NCBI GenBank assembly: GCA_041659465.1
Contig: JBAZYD010000001.1
Coordinates: 4,281-68,280, forward strand
Reading direction: 5' to 3'
Length of the DNA stretch: 64,000 nucleotides
Source of the DNA: Candidatus Micrarchaeia archaeon
Lineage (GTDB): Archaea; Micrarchaeota; Micrarchaeia; Anstonellales; Anstonellaceae
Of this stretch, positions 6,959 to 63,031 are shown piece by piece. Every line of letters starts with the position of its first letter. The stretch's first letter is position 1. Position numbers and translations under genes: made by a program. The notes under the pieces were generated by a model, which was not told the DNA's origin, did no database searches, and worked only from the letters and a program-made list of their open reading frames with translations.

Positions 6959-7380
6959 GGCAGGGGCATGCGCGCCCAAGGATTAAAAAACGCGCATGTC
7001 CCAAAAGGGCGCACAGGGGCGTTGGCTCTGCTTTTTATATATTTTGCCTTCTATCAACCGTCAGAGTCCCGCCATAACTCAACCTGGTAGAGTGCTTGGC
7101 TGTAGTAAAACAACGGCCGTCGGCGATTGTGCTGGCAGTCATCAAGATGTTGTGTGTTCAAGAACCCTTTTTGCTCCTCCCGCAAGCGCTCGTCGCAAAA
7201 AGCGCTCCCGGAAAAGCAAATGTGCGAAAAGGCGTTGAACAAATCACACTGGCGGGATTTTATATTCTTCCTTTAAACAGAAAGGGAAGCGCGCGCCAAA
7301 TCCTCGTGGATTTGTCGATCCAGGCGAACGGCGATCCGTTCGCCTGCTCCACCCATTTTGCCCGCAGGCAAAATGGCTGT

Positions 7381-7452
7381 GCCTCGATGGTGTAGTGGTT
7401 AGCATCCCAGATTGTCGATCTGGTGACCCGGGTTCGAATCCCGGTCGGGGCG
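7381..7452 (+). tRNA. tRNA-Asp (anticodon GTC)
   Basis: Manually folded cloverleaf. Acceptor stem GCCTCGA/TCGGGGC. Anticodon arm CCAGA-TTGTCGA-TCTGG. T-arm CCGGG-TTCGAAT-CCCGG. CCA is not encoded. Confidence 0.85.
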
Positions 7453-7510
7453 TTCCAGGCTTTTTTTCATTATTTTACGGCGTAGAGATTGCAGTGGGTT
7501 CGAATCCCCG

Positions 7511-7596
7511 TTTGGGCGTGGATTTACAAGACCATGTGCATTTTGCGCAGCAAAATGCATCAGACATCGAACTGAGGTTCGATGCTGAACGCCCAG
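7511..7596 (+). ncRNA. Structured element, copy 1 (two hairpins: GCATTTTGC-GCA-GCAAAATGC and CATCGAAC-TGAG-GTTCGATG), preceded by a degenerate tRNA 3'-like fragment (GGGTTCGAATCCCC)
   Basis: The core ACCATGTGCATTTTGC...GCAAAATGCATCAGACATC-hairpin-GATGCTGAACGC is shared with copy 2 at 9240-9338. The second hairpin shows compensatory changes between the copies. Confidence 0.5.
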
Positions 7597-7700
7597 CCAG
7601 ACTATTTTAATTTTACATCTGCAACAGTGCAACAGGATTATTTAATACATATACATACATTTTTAAACACTTGCATGCATATCGAAATAGAGGAGAGACA

Positions 7701-17500: not shown

Positions 17501-20500
17501 ACAACTTCACAGCCACCATAGGGGCGGTGTCAATGAACGACACGCTCCCCACGCTCACCGCAAGCACGGTGAAAAGCATAAGCATGAACGCCACGGCATG
17601 CGGGGTGCTCTCGTCGGATTACACGCTCACCAACCCTGTCTACGGAGGCACGGACTGCTTCACCGCGGCCGCATACGGGCTGACGCTGGACTGCAACGGG
17701 TATGCGGTGAACTACTCGCGCACGGGCGCGGGATGCGGGCTGGCCATCGGCTCGTTCACGAACATAACCGCAAGGAACTGCGCGTTCGCGCAGGGCGCCT
17801 TCAACTCCTCCTCATCCGCATCGGTGTGCCTCTCGTCGTATGCCAATGCCACCATCGCAAACAGCACGTTCTCAACGCAGGGGGGCGCGAACGGCTATGC
17901 GTTCTCCCTGTCGGACAGCTTCGCAACCGCGCTCAACGACAGCTTCGCATACTCAAGCGCCCTTGTGTCGGGCGCGTCGCTCCTCCACAGGAAGTGGTAT
18001 GTCTCCACCAACGTCACCGACCTTGCAGGGAACCAGGTGATGTCCGCCAGCCTGAATATCACGGATGCGCAAAACACGACCATCGGCCCGCTTGCGGTCT
18101 CGTACGGCGCGGCAAGCGTGCCGCCGCTGACGCAGTACATGCAGGGCGCATCGGGCGCGACGTATTACAGCAACTACAGCTTCTATTCATGGGTGGGCAA
18201 CTCCAACAGGACGGTCCAGCTGAACCTCACCACGAACTCCGTGGTATCCATCCCGATAAACGCCTCCACCTGCGGGGTGTTCACAGCATCGATGACGCTG
18301 AAGAACGGCATCTACTCCCCGGGAACCTGCCTGGTGGCCGGGGCGCACTCGCTTACCGTGAACTGCAACGGCTACTCCATCAACTACTCGCAGGCGGGCA
18401 ACGGGCACTATGGCATCGACACGGCGGGGTACAACAACATAGAGGCAATCAACTGCTCGTTCGTGTCCGGCAATGCAAGCGCCGCTGATTCCTATGCGGT
18501 GTACATCAACAATTCGGCCGACTTCAGGCTGCACAATTCCACCGTGGAGGGGAGGGCGGCAAGGCTCAACACCACCTCCCAGGCGCAGTTCATAGGCACC
18601 AGGTTCGACAACGGGACCGTGGACTACTCGGACGCCTTAAGCACGCTGACCTCGAAGCAGTATGCGTACGTGCATGCCATAGGGCTTGCGGGCGAGAGCG
18701 TCAACGGCTCGGCCGTGAACGCCACGGACGCGTTCGGGAGCGTGGCGGCAAGCGGCACCACGGACGGGAACGGCACGGTCACGTTCCTGCTCACGCAGTT
18801 TGTCCAGGACCTTTCCGGGCTTGTCCCGTACGACCCCTACAACTTCACTGCGGCGCACCCTGAAACGCAGGTCGTGAATTACACCTACACCCCCATGAAC
18901 GAGAGCAAGGACGTGACAATCGGCCTGATTTCGGCAAACATCGCGATAGACTCGCCCAATGCCGGGCAGATTTTCATCCAGGGCGACCCTGTCCAGGGCG
19001 GGCCTGTGAACATCGTGGTGAACGAGACTAGGGGGCAGGGGTGGATAGACAACGTCACGGTGCAGGTGCAAGGCGACCCGTTCAACTACACCTATCAGGC
19101 AGTGGAGGTATCGCCCAACCAGTGGGGGTACAACTACACCATAGACCTGAGCCAGGTGTCGGCCACGCTCACCATAGTGGCAAGGGGATACAACGGCACT
19201 GCGTTCGTGAGCGCTACCCGTGATTTCGTGGTCACCCGCTCCTCGGGCTCGGGCGTGCTGCCACCCGTCGTAAGCTATTTCTGCCCCGACTACACCTACC
19301 TCAAGGCGAACAGCACGGAAAACATAAGCATATCCGCGGACCTTGACACCGTGCTTTACAGCATGAGCCTCAACGTCACCTACCCGAACGGGTCAAGCTC
19401 GCTCCTGTCGCCCATTGCCTCGTCATCCGGAAGCGACTATGTCTACAACAGGACATGGCAGCTTTCAATCAACCAGACAGGGAACTATACCCTGTATGCC
19501 ACCGTCACGGACGTGAACGGCAACAACGCCAATTCCACGAGGCGCATATATTCGGTGCCGCAGAACGTGACTGCGAGCCTGTCGGCAAACGGGCCTGACG
19601 CGCTTTACATGAACGACGTGTGCAGCGGGCGCACGCTGTTTTCCGGGGCCAACCTGACAGGGGTGTCGGTTGCGCCGGGGAATTACACCATGGTTGCGGA
19701 GGAGTACGGCCGCGCCAAGCTCTCGTTTTTGGACTTCAACGTGACCTCGGCAAGCGGCGTGTTCCTCAACTACTCCCGCGAATCCGCCGTGGGGCTTCTC
19801 CCGCCCACCAACAGGAGGAACGTATTGCTGTTCTCGACCCATGTGCTGGGCGGCAGGTTCAGCTCAGTGGACGTGCGCATGAACTACAGCTCTGAGGCAG
19901 GCAGCCTGGTTGCGGAATACAGCCTGGACGCGTATGCCTGCGCGGACTTCTACAACTGCACCTGGTCGGCCATGAACTACACGCTCAGCGTGCCTGCCAA
20001 GATAATGAACGCCAGCGTCTCCAACCTGAGCGGGCTCTACGGGATATTCGAGCCTGCATACCAGGACCCCATAATCATCCCAATCAACGTGGTGCCGCCG
20101 CAGGTGGCGCTGCTTGCGCCAAGCCCCTCGTACGCAATCGCCAACTCGACCATCACGGTGTACCTCAATGCGGACCTGGACGCGAACTTGTCTGGGGCAT
20201 GGGTCAACATCACCTACCCCGGCGGCTCGGCAGCCAACCTGACCAACCTGACATTCTCGAACGGCACGGGCTACACGTACAACCTCACCTACTCGTTCGT
20301 GGCGAACGAGACAGGAACATATTACATATCCGCGCGCGTGAACGACACCTACCACCAGAATGGCACGGCAATCGCGCAGGCGCACGTGCTGGCGGCTGCG
20401 CAGGAAGTGAACATCACGTCCTACGGCGTGGTTTCCTCGCTTCTCCTCGACCAGGGGATAGGCGCAACCGTGCTTTCAGGCGCGGGCTCCATGTCGGGAA

Positions 20501-23500
20501 GCGCGGCCGTAGGCAACTACACCGCGCGGTTGGGCACGCAGAATGCGAATGCCAGCTTTGACTTTTACCAGCTTGAGGTGCTGGGAGGGAACTTCAGCCT
20601 CCTGAACTTCAGCGAGCTCTCGCTGCTCACCGCGCCCGTGACCCATCCTGCCAACAGGAGCGCGCTCTACCTGTTCGATGCTGCAGCCGCCGGGATGAAC
20701 TACAGCGGCGCAGGGGTGAGGGTGAACTACACGCAGAGCCTGCCAAGCATAATTTCCGAGGTGGCCCTTGAGGCATGGCATTGCGGAAGCATTGGAAACT
20801 GCACAAGCATGTCAAGGGTGAATGCCACAATCGACACTGCGCTGCACACAGCCACGCTCAACCTGTCCGAAGTTTCAGGCGTGTACGGGATTTACCAGCC
20901 GCTCCTGTCCATCACCACCCCTGTGCAGGCGCCGCTGCCAGTGGTGGCAAGGTTCACAGCCAACAGGATAAACGCCGCCCAGAACGCCAATGTCACAGTC
21001 TACCTCGACCTGGAGATGGGCGCCAACCTGTCGCTTGCCAATGTAAGCGTGGCAAGGCCTTCGGGCGGCGTCCAGTTCCTCTCGAACAGCTCGTATGCCA
21101 ATGGCACCAACCACACCTACAACCTGACATATACGGTATACACGAATGAAAGCGGCACCTACTCGCTTTCCGCGTTTGTAAGGGACGTCTACGCGCAGAA
21201 CACCACGGCAAACGCGACATTCTTTGCAGCCGCCAACGACCTGGTGATGATTACATCGTACGGCCTGGACAACTCAAGCCTGATTGACCCGGGGACGGGC
21301 GCCGTTGCGCAGACCGGCGGGAATTTGCTTGCTGCAAGCCTGCCGCTTGGCAACTACACGTTTGCCGCAAATGCCTCGATTGTAAACATCACGCTGTACC
21401 AGCTGCAGGTGACAGGGGTGATGAATGGAATCAACCACACCAACCTGTCAACCTCGGCAGTGGCTGCGCCTGCGAACAGGAGCGGGCTTTGCCTCTTCAG
21501 CGCTGCCTCGCTTGCCGGCGCCGCCTATGGCAGGGCAAGCGTGGCGATAAGGTATGGAAGCCTTGTTGGAAGCATAGTGTCCGAGGCATCCCTTGAGGTA
21601 TGGCAGTGCGAAAGCGTGGCGAACTGCTCCAGCATGGAGCGGGTGAATGCCACAATCGACTCAGCGCTCCACACCGCCACGTTCAACCTTTCCACAGTTT
21701 CCGGCGTGTACGGGCTTTACCAGCCGCTGCACACGGTGAGCACCTCGGTGCAGGCAGCTGCGCCGCAGATAGCGCTTTTTGCGCCAAGCAGGGCAAGCCC
21801 AGTGAGGAACACCAATGTGACCGTGTACCTGAACGCCGCGCTGGGCGCCCAGCTGTCAAGCGCCGTGGTCACCGTAGCCAAGCCCTACAGCGGGCTGCAG
21901 ACGCTGGTGAACGCGACGTATTCCAACGGCACCAACTACACCTACAACTACACGTATGTCGTGTATGCCAACGAGCCCGACACCTACACGCTCACCGCGG
22001 TGGTGACGGACATCTATGGCCAGAACGCCACTGCCACAAGCTCCTTTGACGCGCAGTACAACACCAATGTGGTGGTGACCTCGTACGGCATGGAAGCCAC
22101 GCGCGTGGTGGACTCCGGGGTCGGCACTGCGCTTCTCTCGGGCGGCAACGTGCTTTCAGGCAGCATCCCCCCGGGAACATACACGTATGCCGCTGACGCA
22201 AGGAACGTAACGTTCACGCTTTTGCAGCTGCCGATAAGCGCAAGCCTGGCAGTGCTCAACTACACCAACTGGTCGGATTCCGCAATCCCCTCCCTCAACA
22301 ACAGGAGCACGCTGTATGTGTTTAGCGTCGGCAACCTGAGCGCGGGGTATTCGCATGCAAGCGCCGCGATAAACTACACCTGGCTTTCTGCAAGGGTGAT
22401 ATCCGAGCCATCGCTTGAGGTCTGGCAGTGCCCAAGCGTTGCAAACTGCTCGGGCATGTCAAGGGTGGATGCCGCAATCGACACGGCATCAGACACAGTC
22501 ACGTTCAACATGACGGATGTTTCCGGCGTGTACGGGCTTTACCAGCCGTCGCAGACCGTGACCCAGACAGTGCACGCAGGGCTTCCGGTAATAACCAGGC
22601 TTGCGCCAAGCGCATACAACACGCTTCTGGGCGAGAATGTCACCATCTACCTGGATGCCACCCTGAGCGTCAACCTGTCCTCCACCCTGGCAAGCCTGTC
22701 CTACCCGTCAGGGGCGGTTGCGAACCTGACCAACGTGACATTCGCCAACGGGAGCGGCTATGACTACAACTACACATATGCGTTCATTGCGAACGAGACC
22801 GGGCGCTATGGCATCACAGCAACAGTATACGACATATACGGCCAGAATGCGACCGCAAACGCCTCGGTGTGGGTGGCTGCCGCGAACGAGAGCGTGTCCA
22901 TTGCCTCGCCAGGGGCGAATTCCTCGCTCCTTTATGATTCGGGAATGGGCACTGCCGTGCTTTCAGGCAACTCCACCATGGAGGGGAACATCACCCCTGG
23001 GAACTACAGCGCGCAGGTCAATGCGTCAAGCGTGGCATTCAGCTTCACTTCGCTTGAGGTGCAAGGCGGGAACCACACCCTCCTGTCGTTTTCCAGCCTT
23101 GCAACAGGCAGCGCTACTGCGCCTGCCAACCGGAGCGAGATGTATGCGTTTTCCGCAAATGCGACAGGCATGGCGTTTGGCTCTGCGGGTATGGAGATAG
23201 ACTACTCGGCTTTGCTTGGCGGCGTGGTGTCGGAATCCGCGCTTGAGGTCTGGGCATGCGAAAGCGTGGCGAACTGCAGCAACATGACCAAGCTTTCCGC
23301 CGCCATCAACACGGCCTCCGATAAAGCCGTCGCGCAGTACTCGGCAGCATACGGGGTCTATGGCCTGTACCAGGCGTCCCAGACCGTCACAGTGACCGAA
23401 ACCGTGACCAATATAGTGCACCAGAGCAACACGAACACCGTGACTAAGGAGGTCAAGACAAACGTCACGGTTGTGAAGAACGTCCCTGTGCCATTCGAGG

Positions 23501-24234
23501 TCCCGGTAGAGGTGAGCGTGCCCTCCTACACCACGGTGCGGCTGCTCTCCGGCCCGCAAAGCGTGGAGATGCACCCGGGCGAAACCACCAATGTCGAGAT
23601 AACGGTGCAAAACAGCCTGGGCAAGGACATAGGCACGGTGACACTTACTGTGCAGCACGGGGACGGGGTGGAGGCGAGCCTTTCCAGGGACACGTTCACC
23701 CTTGCTTCGGGCGCATCGGAAAAGGCAATGCTTGCCATCAAGGCAAGCGCAGGCACAGGCAGCACGAGCGTGAGGATAGCCGCGGACGCGCCATCGATAA
23801 AGATAAAGGACGAGATGTCATTAGCGGTGATGGTGTCAGCGGGCCTTGAAAAGGACAAGCTCGCTGCGCAGCAGAAGATAGAGTTTGCAAAGAAGCTGAT
23901 AGCCGACAACCCCGAGTGCCTGGATTTGCAGGAGGGGCTTGCCAGCGCGGCGATGTACATAGGCAGCGGCAAGTACGCAAGCGCCGAGGCAAGGGCGCAA
24001 AGCACCATATCCAGCTGCTCGGGCATTATGGCGCTGCGCGGCAAGGCCGTCATCCAGACCGAGAAGGTGCCGCAGGTCGACCTTGCGGCAAGCCTGGCAA
24101 TACCTGTGGCGTTCATGGGGGCCGCAGGCGCAGCCGCCCTGGTGGTCTTCATGTTCGCAAAGAGCAGGGAAAGGAGGAAGCGGGACATAGGCAAGCGCAT
24201 TGCTGCAACCCACGGCAAGGGCAGCGCCCAGTGA
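14566..24234 (+). CDS. Giant (3222 aa) cell-surface protein. It has an N-terminal signal/anchor, a right-handed parallel beta-helix (PbH1 / NosD-like) repeat region, dozens of N-glycosylation sequons, five tandem ~276-aa Cys-pair repeats, and a C-terminal TM helix with a basic tail
   Basis: PbH1-type repeats such as ENNTIWS, SRNSITAS, SGNNVVSNASSGIYLYLSNYNTLESNNVTAVNNGIYLY lie at roughly aa 330-800. N-x-S/T sequons are extremely dense. Each repeated module carries LEVWQCESVANCS-M-RVNATIDTA...VSGVYGLYQP. The C-terminus reads ...AALVVFMFAKSRERRKRD. Confidence 0.85.
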   Translation: MSDSAQIGKACLSGNPEARGLSAHFSPFFVFFASLLLFSGAVHAACPGTVSADYNMTQNETATTTACIVAGTAGITVDCQGFTITLNGGSAVPAIDVNSQNITIRNCVIAETSATNVAWGALHLRATANNTTVTNTNISSAGHYAIYALSSYNSFTDVRALATTQNVGAVRFDASSFNHLANMVINKTATANTYALYWNTGDSNALDNVFADGSAAGTAKYGAYLNTFTNGNLTNCEFNSLTNYAVWLTGGSTGNNFSAPQINTSGTAAAHGFYIDLSSGNSISDASINSSGVGIYIVSSSGATNIQRAWINSTASSGIYIQASVASDANIINGSTVNALNYPLWVHQSSYNLVYNSTFISAAGHAFYTDTGTNGNVFVNNTFQSRFTTTGYYGMYFVSDSSYNLIENNTIWSPTYYAIYFGMSSSYNNISRNSITASANAGYGVTFAAIPADNNQVIENNIVANGFGIQIMGDYNNVSGNNVVSNASSGIYLYLSNYNTLESNNVTAVNNGIYLYTSTYNNITNSNYTTNSSYTAYLATNADYNRFAGNVFNQTSGTALDARIGTYIVTSNYNWFENGTIWTYGSDAVRVTTSANNNVFSNNIVYTNATNYYGVQVTTNCQYNQFNGNNITSEKGYGVLVTTTSKYNTFNGGFVDAYRQTGITVQTSSTYNNFSNMNVRTGINANGGYGLYLTGSANNNKFTNMTFASNATYCAYLYNVANNNEFSNVSFFSNTSIAIYMLQNVQGNVFRNFSATSNNTYALDLNGNGNVVNYNSFRHGYLQSNSTAGGTAALYLYNAVNYNNFTNMTITNLGGMGVYFYVAANNIFNNTTINAGPLTNAYGMQLQTLSQNNQLVNSVINTAAPIVSGGYDMVIGNLAAQPSSLVATNTSFDTMSGVNIPNVDTNSYLNLTWYLRANVSSLAGAPVEGTSVAIYNANGALVSNNATDSSGLTPWVAAMQYKQTQSGSGPYIYTLFYPYNFTATIGAVSMNDTLPTLTASTVKSISMNATACGVLSSDYTLTNPVYGGTDCFTAAAYGLTLDCNGYAVNYSRTGAGCGLAIGSFTNITARNCAFAQGAFNSSSSASVCLSSYANATIANSTFSTQGGANGYAFSLSDSFATALNDSFAYSSALVSGASLLHRKWYVSTNVTDLAGNQVMSASLNITDAQNTTIGPLAVSYGAASVPPLTQYMQGASGATYYSNYSFYSWVGNSNRTVQLNLTTNSVVSIPINASTCGVFTASMTLKNGIYSPGTCLVAGAHSLTVNCNGYSINYSQAGNGHYGIDTAGYNNIEAINCSFVSGNASAADSYAVYINNSADFRLHNSTVEGRAARLNTTSQAQFIGTRFDNGTVDYSDALSTLTSKQYAYVHAIGLAGESVNGSAVNATDAFGSVAASGTTDGNGTVTFLLTQFVQDLSGLVPYDPYNFTAAHPETQVVNYTYTPMNESKDVTIGLISANIAIDSPNAGQIFIQGDPVQGGPVNIVVNETRGQGWIDNVTVQVQGDPFNYTYQAVEVSPNQWGYNYTIDLSQVSATLTIVARGYNGTAFVSATRDFVVTRSSGSGVLPPVVSYFCPDYTYLKANSTENISISADLDTVLYSMSLNVTYPNGSSSLLSPIASSSGSDYVYNRTWQLSINQTGNYTLYATVTDVNGNNANSTRRIYSVPQNVTASLSANGPDALYMNDVCSGRTLFSGANLTGVSVAPGNYTMVAEEYGRAKLSFLDFNVTSASGVFLNYSRESAVGLLPPTNRRNVLLFSTHVLGGRFSSVDVRMNYSSEAGSLVAEYSLDAYACADFYNCTWSAMNYTLSVPAKIMNASVSNLSGLYGIFEPAYQDPIIIPINVVPPQVALLAPSPSYAIANSTITVYLNADLDANLSGAWVNITYPGGSAANLTNLTFSNGTGYTYNLTYSFVANETGTYYISARVNDTYHQNGTAIAQAHVLAAAQEVNITSYGVVSSLLLDQGIGATVLSGAGSMSGSAAVGNYTARLGTQNANASFDFYQLEVLGGNFSLLNFSELSLLTAPVTHPANRSALYLFDAAAAGMNYSGAGVRVNYTQSLPSIISEVALEAWHCGSIGNCTSMSRVNATIDTALHTATLNLSEVSGVYGIYQPLLSITTPVQAPLPVVARFTANRINAAQNANVTVYLDLEMGANLSLANVSVARPSGGVQFLSNSSYANGTNHTYNLTYTVYTNESGTYSLSAFVRDVYAQNTTANATFFAAANDLVMITSYGLDNSSLIDPGTGAVAQTGGNLLAASLPLGNYTFAANASIVNITLYQLQVTGVMNGINHTNLSTSAVAAPANRSGLCLFSAASLAGAAYGRASVAIRYGSLVGSIVSEASLEVWQCESVANCSSMERVNATIDSALHTATFNLSTVSGVYGLYQPLHTVSTSVQAAAPQIALFAPSRASPVRNTNVTVYLNAALGAQLSSAVVTVAKPYSGLQTLVNATYSNGTNYTYNYTYVVYANEPDTYTLTAVVTDIYGQNATATSSFDAQYNTNVVVTSYGMEATRVVDSGVGTALLSGGNVLSGSIPPGTYTYAADARNVTFTLLQLPISASLAVLNYTNWSDSAIPSLNNRSTLYVFSVGNLSAGYSHASAAINYTWLSARVISEPSLEVWQCPSVANCSGMSRVDAAIDTASDTVTFNMTDVSGVYGLYQPSQTVTQTVHAGLPVITRLAPSAYNTLLGENVTIYLDATLSVNLSSTLASLSYPSGAVANLTNVTFANGSGYDYNYTYAFIANETGRYGITATVYDIYGQNATANASVWVAAANESVSIASPGANSSLLYDSGMGTAVLSGNSTMEGNITPGNYSAQVNASSVAFSFTSLEVQGGNHTLLSFSSLATGSATAPANRSEMYAFSANATGMAFGSAGMEIDYSALLGGVVSESALEVWACESVANCSNMTKLSAAINTASDKAVAQYSAAYGVYGLYQASQTVTVTETVTNIVHQSNTNTVTKEVKTNVTVVKNVPVPFEVPVEVSVPSYTTVRLLSGPQSVEMHPGETTNVEITVQNSLGKDIGTVTLTVQHGDGVEASLSRDTFTLASGASEKAMLAIKASAGTGSTSVRIAADAPSIKIKDEMSLAVMVSAGLEKDKLAAQQKIEFAKKLIADNPECLDLQEGLASAAMYIGSGKYASAEARAQSTISSCSGIMALRGKAVIQTEKVPQVDLAASLAIPVAFMGAAGAAALVVFMFAKSRERRKRDIGKRIAATHGKGSAQ
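19900..23400 (+). repeat. Five in-frame tandem repeats (period ~825-850 bp, ~276 aa) inside the giant gene
   Basis: Conserved blocks start at ~19921, 20768, 21594, 22418 and 23247, each reading gag g(c/t)(a/c) tgg ca. tgc ... gtgtacgg. ctttaccagcc. Confidence 0.8.
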
Positions 24235-27906: not shown

Positions 27907-28064
27907 CAGATAACCGGTTGATGATTAAGCAGGGCTAGACTTTTAATGTTATCCATTGCCCCAACGTCGGGCGTGTTTTGTTTGGGACAGAAGCGCGCTG
28001 CGCGGCAGGCGCAAGAATGCGCTCCGGGGGGAACGGTTCACTCCCGGGGGAACACCGCGCCGCC

Positions 28065-28267
28065 GCAAGCCCTGCGCGCATGTGCTCCGCCGCCTTGCGC
28101 CGCGCCATTATGCATCTTCCGCGCCGCAGTTTTACCTGAATGGGCGCTCGTTCCTGCGCAGCCGCCGCCCGCTGCTGCAAGCCCTGCGCGTATGTGCTCC
28201 GCCATCTTGCGCCGCGCCATTATGCATCTTCCGCGCCGCAGTTTTACCTGAATGGGCGCTCGTTCCT
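28065..28267 (+). repeat. Tandem direct repeat, 2 x 91 bp (period 112 bp, ~97% identical), intergenic
   Basis: Copy A (28065-28155) and copy B (28177-28267) both read gcaagccctgcgcg.atgtgctccgcc...ttgcgccgcgccattatgcatcttccgcgccgcagttttacctgaatgggcgctcgttcct. Confidence 0.85.
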
Positions 28268-29293
28268 TCTCAGCCGCATGAGGGACGCGCTCCTCCCAAG
28301 GCGCGAGAAAAGGCTTCCGTACGCGCGCTCGAACTCGTCGGGGGGCATTGCCGCGCGCAGGTCGGCCTCTATGAGTATGGCAGGGTAGGCGTATGCCTTG
28401 TGCTGGCAGGAAAGCGAATGCACGAACGACGCGATTTCTGAGAATGTGCGCTGCCCTGACAGGAATTCCACGCGAAGCGGCCTGTCGTCCTTCACGGGCT
28501 TGAGGTAGAAGGAGAGGATTTTTTCGCTCCACTGCCCCAAATCCTTGAGCACGGGGTGCTTGGACGACGAGGAGGAATAGGGGAATGCGCAGGTGCGCTC
28601 GCCAGATTCGAGCATGAAGTAAAGGAAATTCGTGTCTGACGTGTGCATAAAGCCCTGCTCGTTTTGCGAGTGCTTCTGCACGATGTCTATGAAGCGGCGG
28701 GAGCGGCTGTCCTTTATCACGCCCAAAAGAGTGGTGTTTGATTTCCAGGCTGATTCGTAGAGCGACTGGTAGGCTGCTAGCACTTCCTCGTACAGCGGGC
28801 GCATCTCCGAATCCTCTGACGGCTTGTCGGACAGGAGCGGCGCAATCGAGCCGTCCATCATGAGGTAGGATGGAGAGTGCTTCTGGATGAGGGAAGCTGC
28901 AAGGGAGAGCTCGCCCTTGAGGCGGAAAAGAGAGTTGTGCAGCATCACGTCGTGCGAGTCCAGCCCGCTTCTCACGTCGTACTGCATCGGGGGCGATGGG
29001 GAGGGGAAATAGGAGTAGGAGACTGTCCTTGAGGCGCGGTAGGTGAAAAGCGCGCCCACAGCGCGCATGAGGAGGAAATTGAAGCCATGCAGCTCCTCCC
29101 CCGCGATGCCGCCGTCCACAGCGGCAATGGTGCCCTCCACAGGCACAGGGGGCACCTTGTGCACAAGCTCGCGCTCCAGCGTCTCCTCGTACTCGATTTT
29201 CCCGGAATTGAAGCGCAGGCGGCGGGCAAGCTCCTCGCGCGCGCTTTCGGTGGAGGCAATCTGCGCTGCTATTTCTGACAAGCGGTCGGGCAT
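28244..29293 (-). CDS. NurA-like nuclease domain protein (putative)
   Basis: AAVDGG...LLMMDGSI resembles the NurA 5'-3' nuclease catalytic Asp motifs. It was chosen over the overlapping Arg-rich frame 28038..29360 because its composition is realistic. Confidence 0.45.
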   Translation of the reverse strand: MPDRLSEIAAQIASTESAREELARRLRFNSGKIEYEETLERELVHKVPPVPVEGTIAAVDGGIAGEELHGFNFLLMRAVGALFTYRASRTVSYSYFPSPSPPMQYDVRSGLDSHDVMLHNSLFRLKGELSLAASLIQKHSPSYLMMDGSIAPLLSDKPSEDSEMRPLYEEVLAAYQSLYESAWKSNTTLLGVIKDSRSRRFIDIVQKHSQNEQGFMHTSDTNFLYFMLESGERTCAFPYSSSSSKHPVLKDLGQWSEKILSFYLKPVKDDRPLRVEFLSGQRTFSEIASFVHSLSCQHKAYAYPAILIEADLRAAMPPDEFERAYGSLFSRLGRSASLMRLRRNERPFR

Positions 29294-29374
29294 GGCAGTA
29301 TAATGAGCGCAATCGTTTTATGCGCATGGGCTGGCAGGCATAGCAATATAATTTGTGCAACCGTTTCTATCCGC

Positions 29375-36881: not shown

Positions 36882-38048
36882 ATGTTCATGAAAAGGGATG
36901 GGCAGGCCGGGGCAATGCCCCTTCTTCGCAGGCTGGTCTCCATAAATTCCGTTTTTCCGCATGAGAGGCAGCTTGCGCTTTTCGCTGCGGCGCACCTCAA
37001 GCGCTGCGGCTGCAGCGTTCGGCTTCAGGAGTTTGCGCCCGGCAGGCACAATGTCATCGCGCAGAAAGGGAGGAGGGAAGGCGCGGTGCTGCTTACCTCG
37101 CACCTGGACACCGTACCGCCTTACAATTACGGGAAGCGCGACCCTTTTTCCCTGAAGGAGGAGGCAGGGCGCATGCGCGGGCTTGGCGCATGGGACATGA
37201 AGGCAGGGCTTGCCCTTGTGCTCAGGTGCGCAGAGGAATGCACCCCTGGAAAGAAGGGGCTGCGGATTGTGCTTACGGCAGACGAGGAGAACATCTCCGA
37301 GGGCACGTGGTTTGCAAAGAAGCAGGGGGAGTTTTCCAACTGCAGCGCTGCCATTTGCCACGAGATACCCGATGCCATAAGGCCTCCGCGCGCAGGTGAG
37401 AGGCCGCCTATCATACTTGGCAGGCGCGGAAGGTGCGTATACAGATTCTCCGTTAACGGCGTGGGCGCGCACGCGGCAGGGGATGGCGGGAAGTCCGCGC
37501 TTGTGCTTGCCATGAGGCTTGCAGCCGCGCTTGAGGCAATCCCGATGCCGGATGGGAAAACAGGCCCGTGCAGGCTGTTTGTGAGGAAATTCTCGTCCGA
37601 GTCCCGCTCGCTTTCAGTGCCCACCGAGGCAGTGCTTGAGGCGGACGTGCACTATGTGCCGCCGTTCACCAAGGAAAGCTTCCTTTCGCACATAAGGAGG
37701 AGCCTCGCGCGCGCAAAGTTCTCCGTGCCTTCCGGCTGCTCATGGGGCGTGGAAATCCCCGCGCGAAAAACCCCTTACCTTCCCGCGTATGAAATAAGGA
37801 AGGAAAGCCCGTCAGCCGCGCGCTTCCTGTCAGCCTACAAAAAGCACATCGGCAGCTACGCGCTTTCCTACGGCCTTACCGTTGCGGATGAGAACGTGCT
37901 TTCGACCGAAGGGAAGAGGATGCCCATAATCACCGTCGGGCTGGAAGGCGGCAGCGCGCACAGCGCAGGCGAATGGGTGTCGAAGAAGGACTACCTGCTT
38001 CTTTGGGCGCGCATGCCGAAAATCGTGCAGGAAATGCTGGACGGATAG
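36882..38048 (+). CDS. M20-family metallopeptidase / deacylase (ArgE/DapE-like)
   Basis: SHLDTVP and GAWDMKAG metal-binding motifs. Confidence 0.75.
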   Translation: MFMKRDGQAGAMPLLRRLVSINSVFPHERQLALFAAAHLKRCGCSVRLQEFAPGRHNVIAQKGRREGAVLLTSHLDTVPPYNYGKRDPFSLKEEAGRMRGLGAWDMKAGLALVLRCAEECTPGKKGLRIVLTADEENISEGTWFAKKQGEFSNCSAAICHEIPDAIRPPRAGERPPIILGRRGRCVYRFSVNGVGAHAAGDGGKSALVLAMRLAAALEAIPMPDGKTGPCRLFVRKFSSESRSLSVPTEAVLEADVHYVPPFTKESFLSHIRRSLARAKFSVPSGCSWGVEIPARKTPYLPAYEIRKESPSAARFLSAYKKHIGSYALSYGLTVADENVLSTEGKRMPIITVGLEGGSAHSAGEWVSKKDYLLLWARMPKIVQEMLDG

Positions 38049-38298
38049 CAAGCAGCAGCGCCAATGGCTAGAACTAGTCTTCTTCTGAATCCTCGGACTC
38101 ATCCCATTGCTTGTCCTCGCGCCAGGGGAACATGAAACCTTGCTGGGGGGAATGGTTTAAAACGGTTTCTAAAAACGCCTGATAGCCGGTGCCGGCGGGA
38201 GCGCGAAGGCGAGCGGGATGGTTGAGAAAGATTGTAAAGCTGAATGGCTGACGAGGTGGTTTATTCTTACGCCCCGACCGTGCGTGGGACTTGATGCC

Positions 38299-38910
38299 CT
38301 ATGCCTCAGCACGCACCTCTGACTTCTGCTTCTTTTGGGCATTCTTGATGCTCACTATTTCTGCAACAACGACGCCCACCATCGGATTAGAGTTCGCATA
38401 GAGGTAGATTTGCCTTTTTGTTTCATTTTGCCAAGTTTCATACAACTTTGGCAAACCTTCTTCTGTAAGAATAGCAACTGTTAGATTGAAGCTTCCAGTA
38501 GAGTATTCTCGCATATCTACTGCAAAAATACCCTGACATTTTTTGAGCTTGTAGTCAGAATAGAGATGAGGGAGACTATCGAGGCCAAACGCTTGTGTGC
38601 CAAGAAACTCTATCCCTGTAAAATTTTCAATAGGGACGCGTTTGCCCATAGAATATTTGTAGTTGAGAGAACGGCTAATGAGATGAGTTTCGCCAGACTT
38701 GTGGCGTGAAAGGTGAGAATCACCGTTGCGTATGTTGTGGGTGAAATATACGTCTCTATTACGAGTAATAATAACTGCACCGGCAGAGTAAGCTTTGTTC
38801 TCACCAAGAGCAACTATTTCAATCCTTATTTGTCGTGGATTTTGGCTCATACGGTTATCCTCCCCATAAAGACACAGAGAAGGGAAGGTTTTTACGGGTT
38901 TTGAACGCAA
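38299..38910 (-). CDS. Hypothetical protein (low-GC island)
   Basis: 203-aa ORF in a ~45% GC region. No recognisable motif. Confidence 0.45.
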   Translation of the reverse strand: MRSKPVKTFPSLCLYGEDNRMSQNPRQIRIEIVALGENKAYSAGAVIITRNRDVYFTHNIRNGDSHLSRHKSGETHLISRSLNYKYSMGKRVPIENFTGIEFLGTQAFGLDSLPHLYSDYKLKKCQGIFAVDMREYSTGSFNLTVAILTEEGLPKLYETWQNETKRQIYLYANSNPMVGVVVAEIVSIKNAQKKQKSEVRAEA

Positions 38911-38917
38911 TCAGCGT

Positions 38918-39460
38918 TTGAGGGCGTGTATGGTTGGTTTGGCTCCTGAAATTGTCATTACTATTTCTTCTGGCTTCTTATGCGGAGGATTCATTCTATT
39001 TCAAGTAGTAATATCTGGCGATTTTACAAAACGCTTTAAAGTGTTTAATTTGGCTGCTCAAAAAGAGATAAACAAGGGATATAGTGGAATAATTACATCT
39101 TTGTCAAAGCTGAAGAATGCACCGATTGAAGACAAGGTACGAAAATTGGAAGCTGCGACTGAGATACTATACATAATTCCAGATTTGCAGAACCAGTTGC
39201 TTGAAGTTGGAAAGAAAACAGTCTGGGCATATCTTCTTTTTTTAGCGGCGCTATTATCAGGCATTATTCAGTTGACAGCTTACATCACTTTAGACCCTGC
39301 TATCCCGTTCTGGTGCCTCATCTTAGGAATCTTGTATAGTGCCACGCTCGGTAAGGATCTTTTTGACCTCAACGCCACAATGATGAAATATGAATCTGGG
39401 AAAACGATGAAGCAAACGCTAAAGGATATTTTGGCTGAACTCGCAGAGGAGGAAGAATAA
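38918..39460 (+). CDS. Hypothetical membrane protein (low-GC island)
   Basis: Three to four predicted TM helices. Orphan. Confidence 0.45.
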   Translation: MRACMVGLAPEIVITISSGFLCGGFILFQVVISGDFTKRFKVFNLAAQKEINKGYSGIITSLSKLKNAPIEDKVRKLEAATEILYIIPDLQNQLLEVGKKTVWAYLLFLAALLSGIIQLTAYITLDPAIPFWCLILGILYSATLGKDLFDLNATMMKYESGKTMKQTLKDILAELAEEEE

Positions 39461-39477
39461 CTACTTGGTGATTTTGC

Positions 39478-40482
39478 ATGGCTGGAAAGAAAAAGCAAAG
39501 CAAGCCAAAACCCGCAAGACAGATGCCGCAAGTTCCACCTGCCACTCCAACAACTGAACCAATCCCCGAATATCAAAATATACTTCAAAATATACTCAAT
39601 AGCTTGCAAGCAATGGCACCTGACAAAAAAAACAGCCGGATGGATAGAGAGATTCAATTTGCAAATATCTACATGGTTACTGGGAGCCTATTGTTTCTTG
39701 CGTTTATTTCAGCTCTGACGATTCCAGCCCAAAAAGATTCGAGATGGGTTTACAATTTTCATCAAATAGCATACTTAATGTATGGAACCTTTCCTGTTGC
39801 ATTACTATCACTATATCTTGGTTTTAAACACCTATCAAATGCGGAAGAGATTGAAAAAAAGATTAGAGACCATAAAAGTTTTTATGAGAAATTCCCAGAT
39901 GCAATCGTTCTTTTTTGGAACTTGTTAGTAACCGCGGCTGTTATTTTCATTATTGTGGTTTGTGTATTTCTTGTATTAACTGTGGTTAGTTTATTGCTGT
40001 CGATGCTCGCCGAATTTTTAATGTCCCCTGGTTTTAATTTTTCTATATCTTTAACTTCGATATTAACATCAATTGAGGCATATTCCAAAGACTTTGTGGT
40101 GTATTTCTTTCAAATATTCATCACACTTGTTGTATTGGGCGGAGTCACTATTGTAGCTGTTATTCCGGCTATTATTGGACTCGCGGTAATCCATTTCGGT
40201 TCAGGCCTATTAGAAGAAGTTGCATCAATTAAGCAAGGTGAACTTATGGAATTAGTGGTGTTTATTGTTGGCATTGTGATTCTATTGCCAGCAATAGGTA
40301 ATCTATTGGGTCTTCATGATTGGGGGAGTTGGATAAATCCAAATAATGTTGTCTCATTCGTATTTTTTCTAAATCTTGATGACCCATATCATTTGACAGT
40401 TATTGGACTGATAGTTAGTCTAACGATTATGGTTATTGCTGGCGTTCACTCAAGAGCCGAATTAAAAACAGACCCAATATAA
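39478..40482 (+). CDS. Hypothetical polytopic membrane protein (low-GC island)
   Basis: A Lys/Pro-rich N-terminus followed by at least seven hydrophobic helices. Confidence 0.5.
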   Translation: MAGKKKQSKPKPARQMPQVPPATPTTEPIPEYQNILQNILNSLQAMAPDKKNSRMDREIQFANIYMVTGSLLFLAFISALTIPAQKDSRWVYNFHQIAYLMYGTFPVALLSLYLGFKHLSNAEEIEKKIRDHKSFYEKFPDAIVLFWNLLVTAAVIFIIVVCVFLVLTVVSLLLSMLAEFLMSPGFNFSISLTSILTSIEAYSKDFVVYFFQIFITLVVLGGVTIVAVIPAIIGLAVIHFGSGLLEEVASIKQGELMELVVFIVGIVILLPAIGNLLGLHDWGSWINPNNVVSFVFFLNLDDPYHLTVIGLIVSLTIMVIAGVHSRAELKTDPI

Positions 40483-40495
40483 GCCAAACATTTTT

Positions 40496-40939
40496 TTAAA
40501 CCGATTTCGGCGCAGGTGTTTGCTCATTTTTTGATTCCTTGTAAGTCAGAGTTAACTTGTAGTGGATAGTGTTCACACACCTACGGCCTATTTTTCTCCC
40601 CTTGGGCGTGCCTTCGTCTCCATGGCACACTATAAAACCCTCCTTTTCAGTTTGCTTGGAACCTGTCATCGCGCTGATTGCGAAGTCGATTTCATATCCT
40701 CCACGACGACAAGACGGATTACTACACCGTAAGAGTCCCCCTCGTTCTTTGATGGAAACTTGGCGGTCATATTTACGTTTTTTTTCCTCTTCGGATTGAT
40801 ATTGTTCATAAGTTCCATAGCCAGTTTCGCGATATTCGAGTATCGCATCTTCTAGCGCTGGGAATGCTTTATCAAATGTAGTTAACTCTCCAAAAACTCT
40901 CATGCTCCTATCCATAGGTTCTCCCATAAAGACCCCCAT
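40496..40939 (-). CDS. Hypothetical protein with a Cys cluster (CSNPSC...CHGDEG...C) (low-GC island)
   Basis: 147-aa ORF with a possible zinc-binding arrangement. Confidence 0.4.
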   Translation of the reverse strand: MGVFMGEPMDRSMRVFGELTTFDKAFPALEDAILEYRETGYGTYEQYQSEEEKKRKYDRQVSIKERGGLLRCSNPSCRRGGYEIDFAISAMTGSKQTEKEGFIVCHGDEGTPKGRKIGRRCVNTIHYKLTLTYKESKNEQTPAPKSV

Positions 40940-40944
40940 ATTTG

Positions 40945-41568
40945 CTACCTTGGCTCTCTAATTAAACTTCTTTCCAATATCTTTGTATAGCTCAGAAACA
41001 TCAATAAAATAATAAAGAAGCCGGAAACAAATCCATCGACTAAAATATTGGAATTGTAAGTAATAGCGATGACGAAGAAAAGGAAGATTCCGCCCCATAT
41101 AGATAGGGACATTCTTTTTGAGTTACTAGAATCTAGAGGGTCGTTTTGACTGAGCAATTTGGAGATATATGCATCTAGTTTTTTCACAGCTCTCGTAGAA
41201 GAGGCTATCTTGAACTGTTTATGTACAAATTTATGTCTCATTTTTGCATATATGAGCCCTTGGGCTGGAATAAATGGGATTAATTCTAATAAAATCCAAA
41301 TCAAGGTATATATCAACACCATCGAATGGATGGCAGAACTTGAAGCGGACGGGTCACCCGCCCACGCTCCTTGAAGTTTAGAGAGCGCATCAACCACAAG
41401 TAGTATTATGCCAAGAACAGCAACGAAAACCCCCATTTGCTGATAGGTAGAGTCAGTGAGAAGATTTGTAGTGAAGTCGCCTTGAGAAAGAAGAGCTTCA
41501 AAAGCATTCTTGTCCTTTGGCATCTTTAAAGATTGAGTTTGACCTCTCTTTGCTTTTGTTTTAGCCAT
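40945..41568 (-). CDS. Hypothetical membrane protein (low-GC island)
   Basis: Four predicted TM helices and a basic N-terminus. Confidence 0.45.
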   Translation of the reverse strand: MAKTKAKRGQTQSLKMPKDKNAFEALLSQGDFTTNLLTDSTYQQMGVFVAVLGIILLVVDALSKLQGAWAGDPSASSSAIHSMVLIYTLIWILLELIPFIPAQGLIYAKMRHKFVHKQFKIASSTRAVKKLDAYISKLLSQNDPLDSSNSKRMSLSIWGGIFLFFVIAITYNSNILVDGFVSGFFIILLMFLSYTKILERSLIREPR

Positions 41569-41696
41569 TTACTCTCCCTTCTGCGTGTGGGCTTCCGAAC
41601 CATAAAAACCTTCCCTATGCGAGCTGGCAGCCATGCCACCGAGCAATATTTGTCCCTACCTTTACGGCGAGAAGATAGCTTTTTAACGGCTTATGT

Positions 41697-42062
41697 GTGA
41701 TGGGGCATGGAGGTCATTTTATGGCGGATGAAAAAAGAATTGAGATAGTAGCCGCTCCGAAAGATTTTTTCGCAGTGGTGTGCATAGAGGAAGATACTGA
41801 CGATGGAAAAAAAGTAATGGATTATGAAATTCGCCCTGTCCTGTTTTTCAGATGGGAATGTGTTGAAGAATATTCCAAAGTAGACGAAAGTGAATACATA
41901 CCGATTCTGTTGGTGAACAACCGCGTAGTTTCCGAACCAGCGTCAAATGAAGCGGTTAGTTTTTTCGGGAGTTATGAGAAATGTAAAACAGAAGTTGCCC
42001 AGCTCTATGCAAATGCAGTAAAGGAAGAAGAGTCCGAGACTGTTTCTTCCCCTTCCGATTAA
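41697..42062 (+). CDS. Hypothetical acidic protein (low-GC island)
   Basis: 121-aa ORF with no recognisable motif. Confidence 0.4.
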   Translation: MMGHGGHFMADEKRIEIVAAPKDFFAVVCIEEDTDDGKKVMDYEIRPVLFFRWECVEEYSKVDESEYIPILLVNNRVVSEPASNEAVSFFGSYEKCKTEVAQLYANAVKEEESETVSSPSD

Positions 42063-42130
42063 CCCGTCACAGACCAAAGCAGGCAAACACCGCCTCAAGC
42101 AAGAAAAAAGAGCTGGAGATGCCAGACTTG

Positions 42131-43198
42131 TCAACCCTTCTTCTTCACCATCCCCTTCACCGCGCCCTTGAGGACAGCTATCGCGCGCTTGTAATCCGCG
42201 ATGTCTATCACTTCGTTGGGCGTGTGGTCGAGCGCGGAGTCGCCAGGCCCGTAGGCGATTGTGGGGATGCCCGCGTGTATGGTGATGTTCATGTCCGCGC
42301 TTCCGCTCTTCTTCACGTAGCGCGGGGAGAGCGCGCACTCGCGCATGGAGGCGACCATTGCGCGGCAGAGCGCGTGGTTGGGGTCGGTCTCCACGCCCGG
42401 AAGGCTTTCGTGCACCTGCACGGACACGGACGAGGGCGCAAGCGAGCGGAAGGTGCGCGTGACATCGCTGTTCCGTATGGACGGGGGCACGCGCACGTCT
42501 ATCACGAAGTCAAGCGTTGCAGGGACCACGTTTATGGCATCGCGCGAGCCGCCTGCTATCTGGGTGAGGTTCATGATGACGCTGTCAAAGTTGTTCTTGT
42601 GCGCTGGGTAGGTGGCGCGAAGGCGCTGGTAGTATTCTATTGTGCGCTCAATGGGGTTTTCCGACGCCATGCCTGCGTGAGAGGACTTGCCGTGCGTGCG
42701 GCACTCCACCACAAGCCTTCCCTTGTAGGCTATGGTTATTCCATTAGTGTTGGATGGCTCGCCGTTTATTGCCATTTTTGGCTTGGCATAGGTGAGAAGG
42801 TGGCGGATGCCCTTTGAGGTGGGCGCCTCTTCCTCTGTCACGCCTGCCACCATTATCTTGAGAGGGGAGCTGCAGCTCTCTGCGCCTGCCGTGAGAAGCG
42901 CGGCAAGCGGGGATTTGGCATCCACTGCGCCCCTGCCGTATATCTTGCCCTCCGCGCGCTTGTAGGGCATGGGGTCTGATATGGTGTCCATGTGCCCAAA
43001 GAGTAGGAGGTCTGGCGAGTCGCCTTTCTGGTGAGGGTAGTTTGTGGCAACTGCGTTGCCTGCTGCGTCAATCCACACTTTTTCAAAGGGGAACTGTTTG
43101 AGGTACGACTCACAGAGCTTTGCCACCTTTTGCTCCTGCCCTGATGGGCTGGGGGTGGAGACAAGGGAGGCGAGAAAGTCCACGGAGTCTGGTTTCAT
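42131..43198 (-). CDS. lysK: [LysW]-lysine/ornithine hydrolase (M20-family ArgE/LysK-like deacylase)
   Basis: M20 motifs GHMDTI and GAVDAK. It is the last gene of the lysW-X-Y-Z-J-K block, with a 4-bp overlap with lysJ. Confidence 0.75.
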   Translation of the reverse strand: MKPDSVDFLASLVSTPSPSGQEQKVAKLCESYLKQFPFEKVWIDAAGNAVATNYPHQKGDSPDLLLFGHMDTISDPMPYKRAEGKIYGRGAVDAKSPLAALLTAGAESCSSPLKIMVAGVTEEEAPTSKGIRHLLTYAKPKMAINGEPSNTNGITIAYKGRLVVECRTHGKSSHAGMASENPIERTIEYYQRLRATYPAHKNNFDSVIMNLTQIAGGSRDAINVVPATLDFVIDVRVPPSIRNSDVTRTFRSLAPSSVSVQVHESLPGVETDPNHALCRAMVASMRECALSPRYVKKSGSADMNITIHAGIPTIAYGPGDSALDHTPNEVIDIADYKRAIAVLKGAVKGMVKKKG

Positions 43199-53407: not shown

Positions 53408-53503
53408 GCGGATGTAGTATAACCTGGCTAGTATTTTGGCCTTCCATAATTTGGTTCTGCTTGAAGAAAGTCAAAGGTCCGGGTTCAAATCCCGGCATCC
53501 GCA
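53408..53503 (+). tRNA. tRNA-Gly (anticodon TCC) with a ~22-nt intron after anticodon-loop position 37
   Basis: Acceptor GCGGATG/CATCCGC. D-stem GTAT/GTAT with G.U pairs. Anticodon arm TTGGC-CTTCCAT. T-arm CCGGG-TTCAAAT-CCCGG. Total 96 nt versus ~74 expected. Confidence 0.7.
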
Positions 53504-62497: not shown

Positions 62498-63031
62498 TCA
62501 AAACGCCTTTTCACGGTTGATGGTGATTTTTGACACATCTATCAACCGCACGATGTTCAATGTCCCATTTTCTTCCTTTATATAAATCACTTTGGGAGAT
62601 ATGTCCTTGCGCTCCTTGTTGCTGTCAAATGCGGCTATGAGCGGCTTGTTCATGCTATCATCAGCAGGGATGAGAAGGCCTGTCACGCTGCTGCCGTCCT
62701 TGGTTTTTACCGTGGCATTGGTGACGCCGGGGGTTATTTTGTTCATGTCGATTATTTTTCCGAAGCCTACAACGGAAACATCCCACCCTGTAAAGCCAAC
62801 TGACGTCTGCGCATATATGTCCTTTCTGGGGGTGATTTCGTTCACCTGGCCCATGGTATAGTAGTTCCCCCTTTCGCCAAATAGCGGTTTTGCATTAATC
62901 TGGACGAGCACCAAGTCGTTTTTGGAAATGCCCTCCCTTTTCACCGCATTCCCTACGTTGTCTTCCACGGCAACCTTGACTTTTGTCACTTGGCAAACAA
63001 AGACCATTCCATCACCATTTGGCTTATGCAT
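62498..63031 (-). CDS. Hypothetical protein (lower-GC gene)
   Basis: 177-aa ORF with no motif. Confidence 0.45.
   Translation of the reverse strand: MHKPNGDGMVFVCQVTKVKVAVEDNVGNAVKREGISKNDLVLVQINAKPLFGERGNYYTMGQVNEITPRKDIYAQTSVGFTGWDVSVVGFGKIIDMNKITPGVTNATVKTKDGSSVTGLLIPADDSMNKPLIAAFDSNKERKDISPKVIYIKEENGTLNIVRLIDVSKITINREKAF

Follow-up and report, generated by a model that had tools for sequence, protein, structure and literature searches.

A low-GC islet of six uncharacterized genes downstream of lysK in a Micrarchaeia archaeon

What is a block of six genes with a low guanine-plus-cytosine (GC) content doing at the end of the lysine genes of an archaeon, and where did it come from? The question is raised by a 64,000-nucleotide (nt) stretch of DNA (contig JBAZYD010000001.1, positions 4,281 to 68,280), referred to here as the window, which belongs to a 139-kb contig in a Candidatus Micrarchaeia metagenome-assembled genome (MAG). 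The block, referred to as the islet, spans window positions 38299–42062 (3764 bp) and holds six open reading frames (ORFs) in four transcription units. The source genes, WC861_00170 to WC861_00195, are all annotated as encoding a hypothetical protein. An initial annotation of this DNA had proposed a horizontally acquired island of about 4 kb that might encode a membrane-associated defense or abortive-infection module, or a toxin/immunity set. The explanation favored here is a composite one, namely that the islet is separately acquired mosaic cargo, probably related to genetic conflict, in a hotspot that flanks lysK. We estimate the probability of this reading as a whole at about 0.55.

Composition and location of the islet

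The islet has a GC content of 40.1%, as compared with 57.5% for the rest of the window. The four 1-kb bins that cover it have GC fractions of 0.461, 0.382, 0.395 and 0.409, whereas the remaining 60 bins average 0.575 (standard deviation 0.033, minimum 0.457), and a 200-bp profile places its edges at ~38300, the stop codon of ORF1, and at ~42050–42100, the stop codon of ORF6. The low-GC island of the initial annotation is thus real. Could the dip simply reflect the hydrophobic composition of membrane proteins, as that annotation had cautioned? The GC content at third codon positions (GC3) is 0.30–0.40 in all six islet genes, including those for the soluble proteins ORF1, ORF4 and ORF6, so membrane-protein hydrophobicity can be ruled out as the cause. 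Among 18 native ORFs sampled, 17 have a GC3 of 0.65–0.80, the outlier being an ORF at 28038–29360 (0.47). The islet also contains more long frames than expected: seven of at least 113 amino acids (aa) and four of at least 176 aa, versus 0.49 and 0.01, respectively, in 500 dinucleotide-preserving shuffles.

Do related genomes share the islet? A scan with the LysK protein, keeping one genome per species, yielded eight Micrarchaeia/Micrarchaeota loci with 70–97% protein identity. A tblastn search with the six islet proteins found none of the six genes in these relatives; lysY, lysZ, lysJ and lysK are collinear in every relative locus long enough to show them. The genes are therefore not a conserved, syntenic feature of the lineage at the junction between the M20 peptidase gene and lysK. 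The foreign codon composition and the absence of all six genes from the eight relatives bear out the proposed horizontal acquisition, and it is near-certain that the islet is foreign, strain-specific DNA inserted between an M20 peptidase gene and the lys cluster.

The left flank is the M20 peptidase gene itself (36882–38048, + strand), which has native GC content, matches to Pfam Peptidase_M20 and M20_dimer, and 59% identity to its counterpart in one relative (L015). A 250-bp spacer of ~55% GC (38049–38298) separates its stop codon from that of ORF1; the ORFs within the spacer are all shorter than 60 aa (57 aa at most), and neither spacer nor islet has a match to an RNA family. The right flank is a lysK-like M20 deacylase gene identified with Pfam (42131–43198, − strand), the last gene of lysY-lysZ-lysJ-lysK, and variable cargo starts at its stop codon. 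The ORF6 end of the islet stops ~70 nt short of that stop codon at 42131. The alignment with L010, the closest relative (89% nucleotide identity across 5.4 kb), breaks off at 42135, no more than 5 bp from the stop codon of lysK; for the relatives together, homology ends at positions 42135–42213 on the lysK side, and homology to L015 ends at 38029, near the M20 stop codon at 38048.

In Micrarchaeia, the 3′ end of lysK is where a recurrent variable site begins, and the islet is located in this site: the content directly downstream of lysK varies from genome to genome. Four relatives have no low-GC insert: lysK is followed by an M20 gene 6 bp away in L013, directly by an NHL-repeat gene in L016, and by native-GC genes for homoisocitrate dehydrogenase, homoaconitase and homocitrate synthase in L012 and L014. 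Three others have different low-GC cargo. L010 has ~1.5 kb at 45% GC that encodes a D12 (Dam-type) methylase, matched by PADLOC MTase_II at 2.8e-98, together with a convergent 176-aa ORF that overlaps it and weakly matches PD-(D/E)XK. L011 has ~1.7 kb at 36–40% GC that encodes a protein with SLFN_AlbA_2 and HATPase_c_4 domains. L015 has at least 3.5 kb at 44–48% GC, followed by ~3 kb of variable cargo at 49–57% GC and then the M20 gene; its cargo includes genes for a GHKL-ATPase protein matching REase_II models (3e-12) and a C5 cytosine methylase (MTase_II, 3e-100), and further a PIN_3 toxin (VapC-type) with a MazE/AbrB-type antitoxin, as well as unknown genes.

The lysine-pathway genes found downstream of lysK in L012 (11062–15389) and L014 (5791–9491) converge on lysK, as seen when these loci are compared with window positions 42131–35700; the homoaconitase call in L014 was made without a scan for the small subunit, and the contig of L010 is long enough to show at least homoisocitrate dehydrogenase. 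None of these three enzymes is encoded anywhere in the 64-kb window, where an M20 peptidase gene and a formyltransferase-like gene take their place, and the genes for the first half of the aminoadipate route to lysine may lie elsewhere in the genome or may have been lost.

How did the islet get there? Domain scans and searches for repeats and tRNAs found no integrase, attachment (att) site, flanking repeat or adjacent tRNA at the islet boundaries, in line with the initial annotation, which had seen neither an integrase nor repeat boundaries. The nearest tRNA, at 53408, is ~11 kb away. The only long inverted match is the shared 17-nt promoter motif described below. No conserved sequence follows the lysK stop codon across the genomes compared. 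Since integrase, att site and tRNA are all lacking, recombination is probably responsible rather than site-specific integration; cargo from low-GC archaea or their mobile elements would have become established through exchange within or close to the conserved flanks.

Six genes and their families

Which proteins does the islet encode? All six previously listed ORFs were found, with four start codons (ORF1, ORF2, ORF4 and ORF6) moved inward on the basis of homologue alignments and NCBI and JGI gene calls. ORF1 (WC861_00170; 38299–38850, − strand) starts at the ATG at 38850, which replaces the TTG at 38910, and encodes a 183-aa basic soluble protein. ORF2 (WC861_00175; 38930–39460, + strand; alternative TTG start at 38918) encodes 176 aa with about three transmembrane segments, a helical linker and an acidic tail. 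ORF3 (WC861_00180; 39478–40482, + strand) encodes a 334-aa polytopic membrane protein with about six to seven transmembrane segments and a lysine-rich N-terminus; within it, a perfect 12-nt tandem duplication (TCAAAATATACT twice, 39573–39596) encodes QNILQNIL and looks like a recent, in-frame event. ORF4 (WC861_00185; 40496–40915, − strand) encodes a soluble 139-aa protein with four conserved cysteines, and its start at 40915 yields the conserved N-terminus MGEPMDRS. ORF5 (WC861_00190; 40945–41568, − strand) encodes 207 aa with about four transmembrane segments. ORF6 (WC861_00195; 41721–42062, + strand) encodes a 113-aa acidic soluble protein, with an isoelectric point of 4.4 as computed for the longer, 121-aa reading from 41697. 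ORF6 is the weakest coding case: its coding status rests on frame length and the codon-position pattern GC1>GC3>GC2 only. Hydropathy thus agrees with the earlier prediction of three polytopic membrane proteins (ORF2, ORF3 and ORF5) and marks ORF1, ORF4 and ORF6 as soluble, and the cysteine-cluster protein noted at that time corresponds to ORF4.

None of the six proteins has a significant match in Pfam, PHROGs, PADLOC or NCBIfam (the best PADLOC E-value, 0.04, is at chance level) or in profile searches of PDB sequences, which confirms the earlier impression that no domain is recognizable. There is likewise no recognizable toxin or antitoxin domain in any islet protein in Pfam, PADLOC or NCBIfam; only the two-gene layout fits such a system. 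No similarity was found among the islet proteins themselves.

The four transcription units are ORF1 (− strand), ORF2-ORF3 (+ strand), ORF5-ORF4 (− strand) and ORF6 (+ strand). ORF2 and ORF3 are separated by 17 nt. ORF5 adjoins ORF4, lying 5 nt upstream on the same strand, and this pair converges on ORF3 with 13 nt between the stop codons. A 17-nt motif, AGGGAAGGTTTTTACGG, which includes the TATA-like TTTTTA, is located ~30 nt upstream of ORF2 (38881–38897, + strand), and a second copy, AGGGAAGGTTTTTATGG, is located ~35 nt upstream of ORF5 (41600–41616, − strand). The 17-mer AGGGAAGGTTTTTAYGG occurs exactly twice in the 64 kb at up to three mismatches, versus 0.28 occurrences expected, and each copy points at the first gene of a membrane-protein-led operon. 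Because almost the same element is found in both, ORF2-ORF3 and ORF5-ORF4 are probably co-regulated or of common origin. Read from the sequence, TATA-like boxes also precede ORF6 (TTTTTAACGG, 41680–41689, + strand, ~35 nt upstream of the ATG at 41721) and ORF1 (CTTTATGG), and may act as promoters. The archaeal type of these promoter-like boxes suggests an archaeon as the immediate donor of the islet, even in the case of ORF4, most of whose relatives are bacterial.

Do the six genes travel together? The six proteins were compared by tblastn with the fetched homologue loci, and gene tables or pairwise comparisons were used for the remaining loci. At the loci of the ORF1 (14), ORF2 (10) and ORF4 (13) families, no homologue of another islet gene was found; only the gene that had seeded the search was present, and clustering of neighbors revealed no shared partner. 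Co-occurrence cannot be shown for ORF3, ORF5 and ORF6 because they are singletons. Together with the absence of any known defense or toxin family, these observations do not bear out the single six-gene module or toxin/immunity set of the initial annotation. It is near-certain that the islet is a mosaic of independently moving gene families rather than one conserved six-gene system.

A search with ORF1 returned 19 proteins, 18 of them homologues with 41–86% identity (the closest, P0002, at 86%), and a metagenome scan added 12 further loci. Conserved residues are H46-x-S48-R49-H50, D112, R114, N122 and K145-R146-Q147. The AlphaFold2 model has a predicted local distance difference test (pLDDT) score of 87.5 and consists mostly of beta strands with two helices. 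A fold comparison had been proposed for the islet proteins, and the Foldseek searches made with the ORF1 and ORF4 models found no match, as did the profile searches; for ORF1, nothing in PDB or BFVD matched at an E-value below 0.02, and the TM-score never exceeded 0.33. A Pfam scan of every family member revealed no consistent weak match. All family contexts so far are archaeal (e.g., L007 and L009), on archaeal-looking metagenome contigs; the loci examined have a GC content of 30–52%, and the family was not found on the phages, plasmids or viral contigs searched. No neighbor is conserved, save on near-identical contigs from the same organism. The neighbors include an MmeI-like type IIG enzyme, VapBC, an AlbA_2 protein, an AAA_22/SMC-like pair and a KaiC-like ATPase, and one locus has an integrase-like fragment that was recognized by eye, Pfam having no match there. 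On three near-identical contigs of ~30–33% GC (L007, 616–1141; L009, 7835–8360; L027, 3557–4082), the ORF1 homologue lies directly downstream of the gene for the 1130-aa MmeI-like type IIG enzyme and is broken into two frames that overlap, probably a pseudogene created by a frameshift.

The ORF4 family comprises 21 homologues, which have 43–51% identity to ORF4 and are mostly bacterial; the two with named organisms come from bacterial MAGs (Terracidiphilus and Ktedonobacter), and the family spans Acidobacteriota, Chloroflexota, Bacteroidota and the archaeon studied here (L002, L005, L032, L038, L039). In an alignment of 22 homologues, C72 and C77 never vary, and conservation of C105 and C121 is at least 90%, which agrees with the cysteine cluster noted initially. 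The family motifs are MGEPMDRS, CxNPxC-RGGYE and CxGDEGSPKGR, plus the fourth cysteine. An AlphaFold2 model (pLDDT 73) places beta strands on either side of the cysteines (CxxxxC...C...C), and a putative zinc-ribbon-like metal site is plausible. Small zinc-ribbon and treble-clef proteins resemble ORF4 in having four conserved cysteines with flanking beta strands, but the cysteine spacing of ORF4 is atypical and there is no Pfam or PDB match: Foldseek against PDB gave nothing at an E-value below 0.02 and no TM-score above 0.33, and a Pfam scan of every member found no consistent weak match; the family has no Pfam entry. ORF4 homologues occur in an insertion between phoH and ybeY, adjoining PIN and TacA1 genes; in a conjugative element with integrase, HTH_17 and TrbC/VirB3/VirB4 genes; downstream of a gene for an extracytoplasmic function (ECF) sigma factor; on a Fibrella plasmid, adjoining IS3, recombinase and replication genes; and on an IMG/VR contig, between genes for a tyrosine integrase and an Mrr_cat nuclease. 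These neighbors are unrelated to one another and to the islet proteins. The locus also illustrates that this one small, cysteine-rich family linked to mobile elements has spread across domains of life.

The other four genes were searched in one full HMMER pass over 1.84 billion representatives, with ORF2, ORF6, ORF5 and ORF3 joined end to end as the query. ORF2 has seven relatives there, with 27–39% identity, and ORF3, ORF5 and ORF6 matched only themselves. A word-seeded search of 5.8 billion clusters likewise returned only ORF3 itself for ORF3, and the three genes have no homologue among ~15 billion proteins. One ORF2 homologue is located in a 38%-GC integrative element with genes for Fic, a Prim-Pol/DnaG-zinc-ribbon protein, a resolvase and an integrase. 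This is a small element (L040, 3366–11024; also L041 and L042) in which the Prim-Pol/DnaG-zinc-ribbon protein has 790 aa, and the tyrosine integrase is seen beyond the resolvase in L041, a contig that overlaps L040. In L040, the ORF2 homologue overlaps the start of a gene for a soluble 307-aa protein with a PD-(D/E)XK-like motif (D...E-x-K) recognized by eye; this protein has no PADLOC match and was not scanned against Pfam. It was considered as an ORF3-like partner and rejected, being soluble and carrying that motif; the pair may instead be a membrane-protein-plus-nuclease cassette. Another ORF2 homologue is located alone between NAC and SHMT genes on an archaeal chromosome, where the gene has 35% GC and the locus 48%. 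ORF2, ORF5 and the small membrane proteins beside homologues were also considered as distant kin, and hhalign gave probabilities below 1%.

What the islet may do

What are the functional implications of such cargo? A role in genetic conflict is the most likely one because of the location of the islet and the company that the homologues of its genes keep. Small, independent cassettes would act in defense against viruses or mobile elements, in exclusion or in addiction. In the likeliest arrangement of such a cassette, a membrane protein (ORF2, ORF3 or ORF5) would be the effector, and a soluble partner (ORF4, ORF1 or ORF6) would be the sensor, enzyme or regulator. We would put this functional part of the composite reading at roughly one in three to one in two. 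The defense role suggested in the initial annotation gains indirect support from restriction-modification, toxin-antitoxin or Schlafen/AlbA_2 genes at the same junction in three relatives, but it gains none from the PADLOC models.

The islet can be compared with three kinds of known system. First, chromosomal defense islands and integration hotspots are known from bacteria (Makarova et al. 2011 and later studies, as cited in PMC12988326). Like them, the lysK site is a fixed position between conserved genes with cargo that varies among strains, four relatives having no low-GC insert, and its cargo includes restriction-modification and toxin-antitoxin genes of atypical GC content. Unlike them, it belongs to a DPANN archaeon, the islet cargo includes no known defense family, there is no recombinase, and the wider interval exchanges native metabolic genes as well. 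Second, islands and proviruses that integrases direct to tRNA genes share the foreign composition, the strain-specific occurrence and the homologues on mobile elements. However, the islet lacks an integrase, direct repeats, a tRNA target and any gene for replication or structural proteins, and at 3.8 kb it is far smaller. Third, there are two-gene defense and abortive-infection cassettes that pair a small membrane effector with a soluble sensor, a general architecture that is not tied to any specific family. ORF5-ORF4 and ORF2-ORF3 are similarly tight two-gene operons led by small membrane proteins, but there is no sequence or fold match to such cassettes, and the proteins that accompany ORF2 and ORF4 homologues in other places are unrelated.

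This type of feature is known, the pattern being that of a variable or defense hotspot and not that of an integrase-mediated island or provirus, and the gene content is uncharacterized. The locus is not described in PMC12892359, on horizontal transfer in Micrarchaeota, or PMC12988326, on archaeal immunity, and may be mentioned elsewhere. A survey of 7747 archaeal genomes reports that restriction-modification and CRISPR are scarce in DPANN archaea, whose genomes are enriched in compact single-gene candidates (PMC12988326). A nucleotide-defined site that swaps restriction-modification, toxin-antitoxin and unknown genes provides a short candidate list for new archaeal immunity or exclusion functions. 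In the islet, the candidates comprise three small protein families plus three genes that have no relatives, in a group with few known defense systems (PMC12988326).

Several considerations weigh against the composite reading. First, a function drawn from location is statistical and not specific. Second, the island proteins match no model in PADLOC, Pfam, PHROGs or NCBIfam. Third, the interval from lysK to the NHL-repeat gene also swaps native-GC genes, with homoisocitrate dehydrogenase, homoaconitase and homocitrate synthase genes in L012 and L014 versus an M20 gene and a formyltransferase-like gene in the window, so the region is generally plastic and not exclusively a defense site. Fourth, clear defense or toxin-antitoxin neighbors are found at only about four of about ten independent ORF1-family loci, and some homologues are located alone among housekeeping genes (e.g., L043). 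Fifth, ORF6 could be non-coding. Finally, the islet junctions are supported by one assembly only; a Logan contig (L001, 2487 bp, run SRR18595301) is independent and covers only the islet interior. On present evidence, this is an ordinary strain-specific accessory islet.

How well do other explanations account for the same observations? The first extends the conflict reading: the islet would encode at least one new archaeal conflict system (ORF5-ORF4, ORF2-ORF3 or ORF1), and ORF1, whose confident model of mostly beta strands carries a conserved His/Arg/Asp/Lys set and resembles no solved or viral structure searched, would represent a new enzyme fold. We regard this as a tentative possibility, with the odds clearly against it. 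If it were true, the lysK hotspot would serve as a natural catalogue for the discovery of DPANN defense genes.

Small membrane proteins and genes without relatives are typical of archaeal mobile elements, and the islet could thus be a decayed piece of a single integrated archaeal virus or plasmid, its membrane proteins having served in the envelope, exclusion or transfer and having no role in the cell now. The uniformly low GC content of all six genes fits this idea, as do the ORF2 homologue within the 38%-GC integrative element and the ORF4 homologues in a conjugative element, on a plasmid and on an IMG/VR contig. The elements that carry these homologues have no other islet gene, however, and neither the islet nor its immediate surroundings contain an integrase, a replication or capsid gene, an att repeat or a tRNA target. 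The islet proteins have no significant PHROG match, and searches of the IMG/VR viral contigs returned nothing for ORF1 and ORF3 and one contig for the ORF4 family (L039), ORF2, ORF5 and ORF6 not having been searched there. Moreover, all frames are intact, with their own promoter-like boxes. A viral or plasmid remnant is therefore unlikely.

DPANN archaea are mostly host-dependent (PMC12892359). The islet genes might encode strain-specific proteins of the envelope or of host interaction in an episymbiotic DPANN cell and would then owe their diversity to horizontal transfer. Membrane proteins account for three of the six products, and a native neighboring gene encodes a large NHL-repeat protein whose single hydrophobic segment is C-terminal. 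Yet nothing beyond membrane segments points to extracellular domains (no search for signal peptides, adhesin repeats or glycosylation motifs was made), loops are short, and the soluble parts, with their basic or acidic tails, look cytoplasmic. The other cargo at this site in relatives consists of defense and toxin-antitoxin genes and not of surface proteins, and the homologues of ORF4 come mostly from bacteria and are associated with mobile elements. We consider this explanation, which has nothing specific in its favor, quite improbable.

It is very doubtful that the six genes constitute one membrane-associated defense or abortive-infection system, or one toxin/immunity set. They are compact, with no other genes between them, two of the operons have the 17-nt promoter element in common, and the hotspot contains defense genes in relatives; but they form four separate transcription units on alternating strands, three of them are singletons, none has a PADLOC match, and no locus with an ORF1, ORF2 or ORF4 homologue has another islet gene. 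Chimeric joining of low-GC DNA from another organism during assembly or binning can be set aside as barely credible: although the sequence comes from a MAG and the sole independent contig covers the interior and not the junctions, an artefact would need two joins exactly at two gene ends within a 139-kb contig whose two flanks are syntenic with relatives, three independently assembled relatives have other low-GC inserts at the same nucleotide-level site, and the islet has archaeal-type TATA-like boxes.

Elsewhere in the window

The islet is not the only part of the window with a low GC content. A second patch (7380–9053, ~45–47% GC) begins directly after a tRNA-Asp gene (7380–7453) and contains a 460-aa ORF (7671–9053, + strand; GC3 0.46) without a Pfam match, which may be another acquired gene, here beside a tRNA. 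A third patch (62498–63031; 48% GC in its 1-kb bin) contains a 177-aa ORF on the − strand, also without a Pfam match. A giant ORF of 3222 aa (14566–24234) has native GC content, with a GC3 of 0.80. The tRNA nearest to the islet (53408–53503, 96 nt) was detected with Rfam at 52 bits and missed by ARAGORN; it is likely to be interrupted by an intron, as would fit an archaeal genome.

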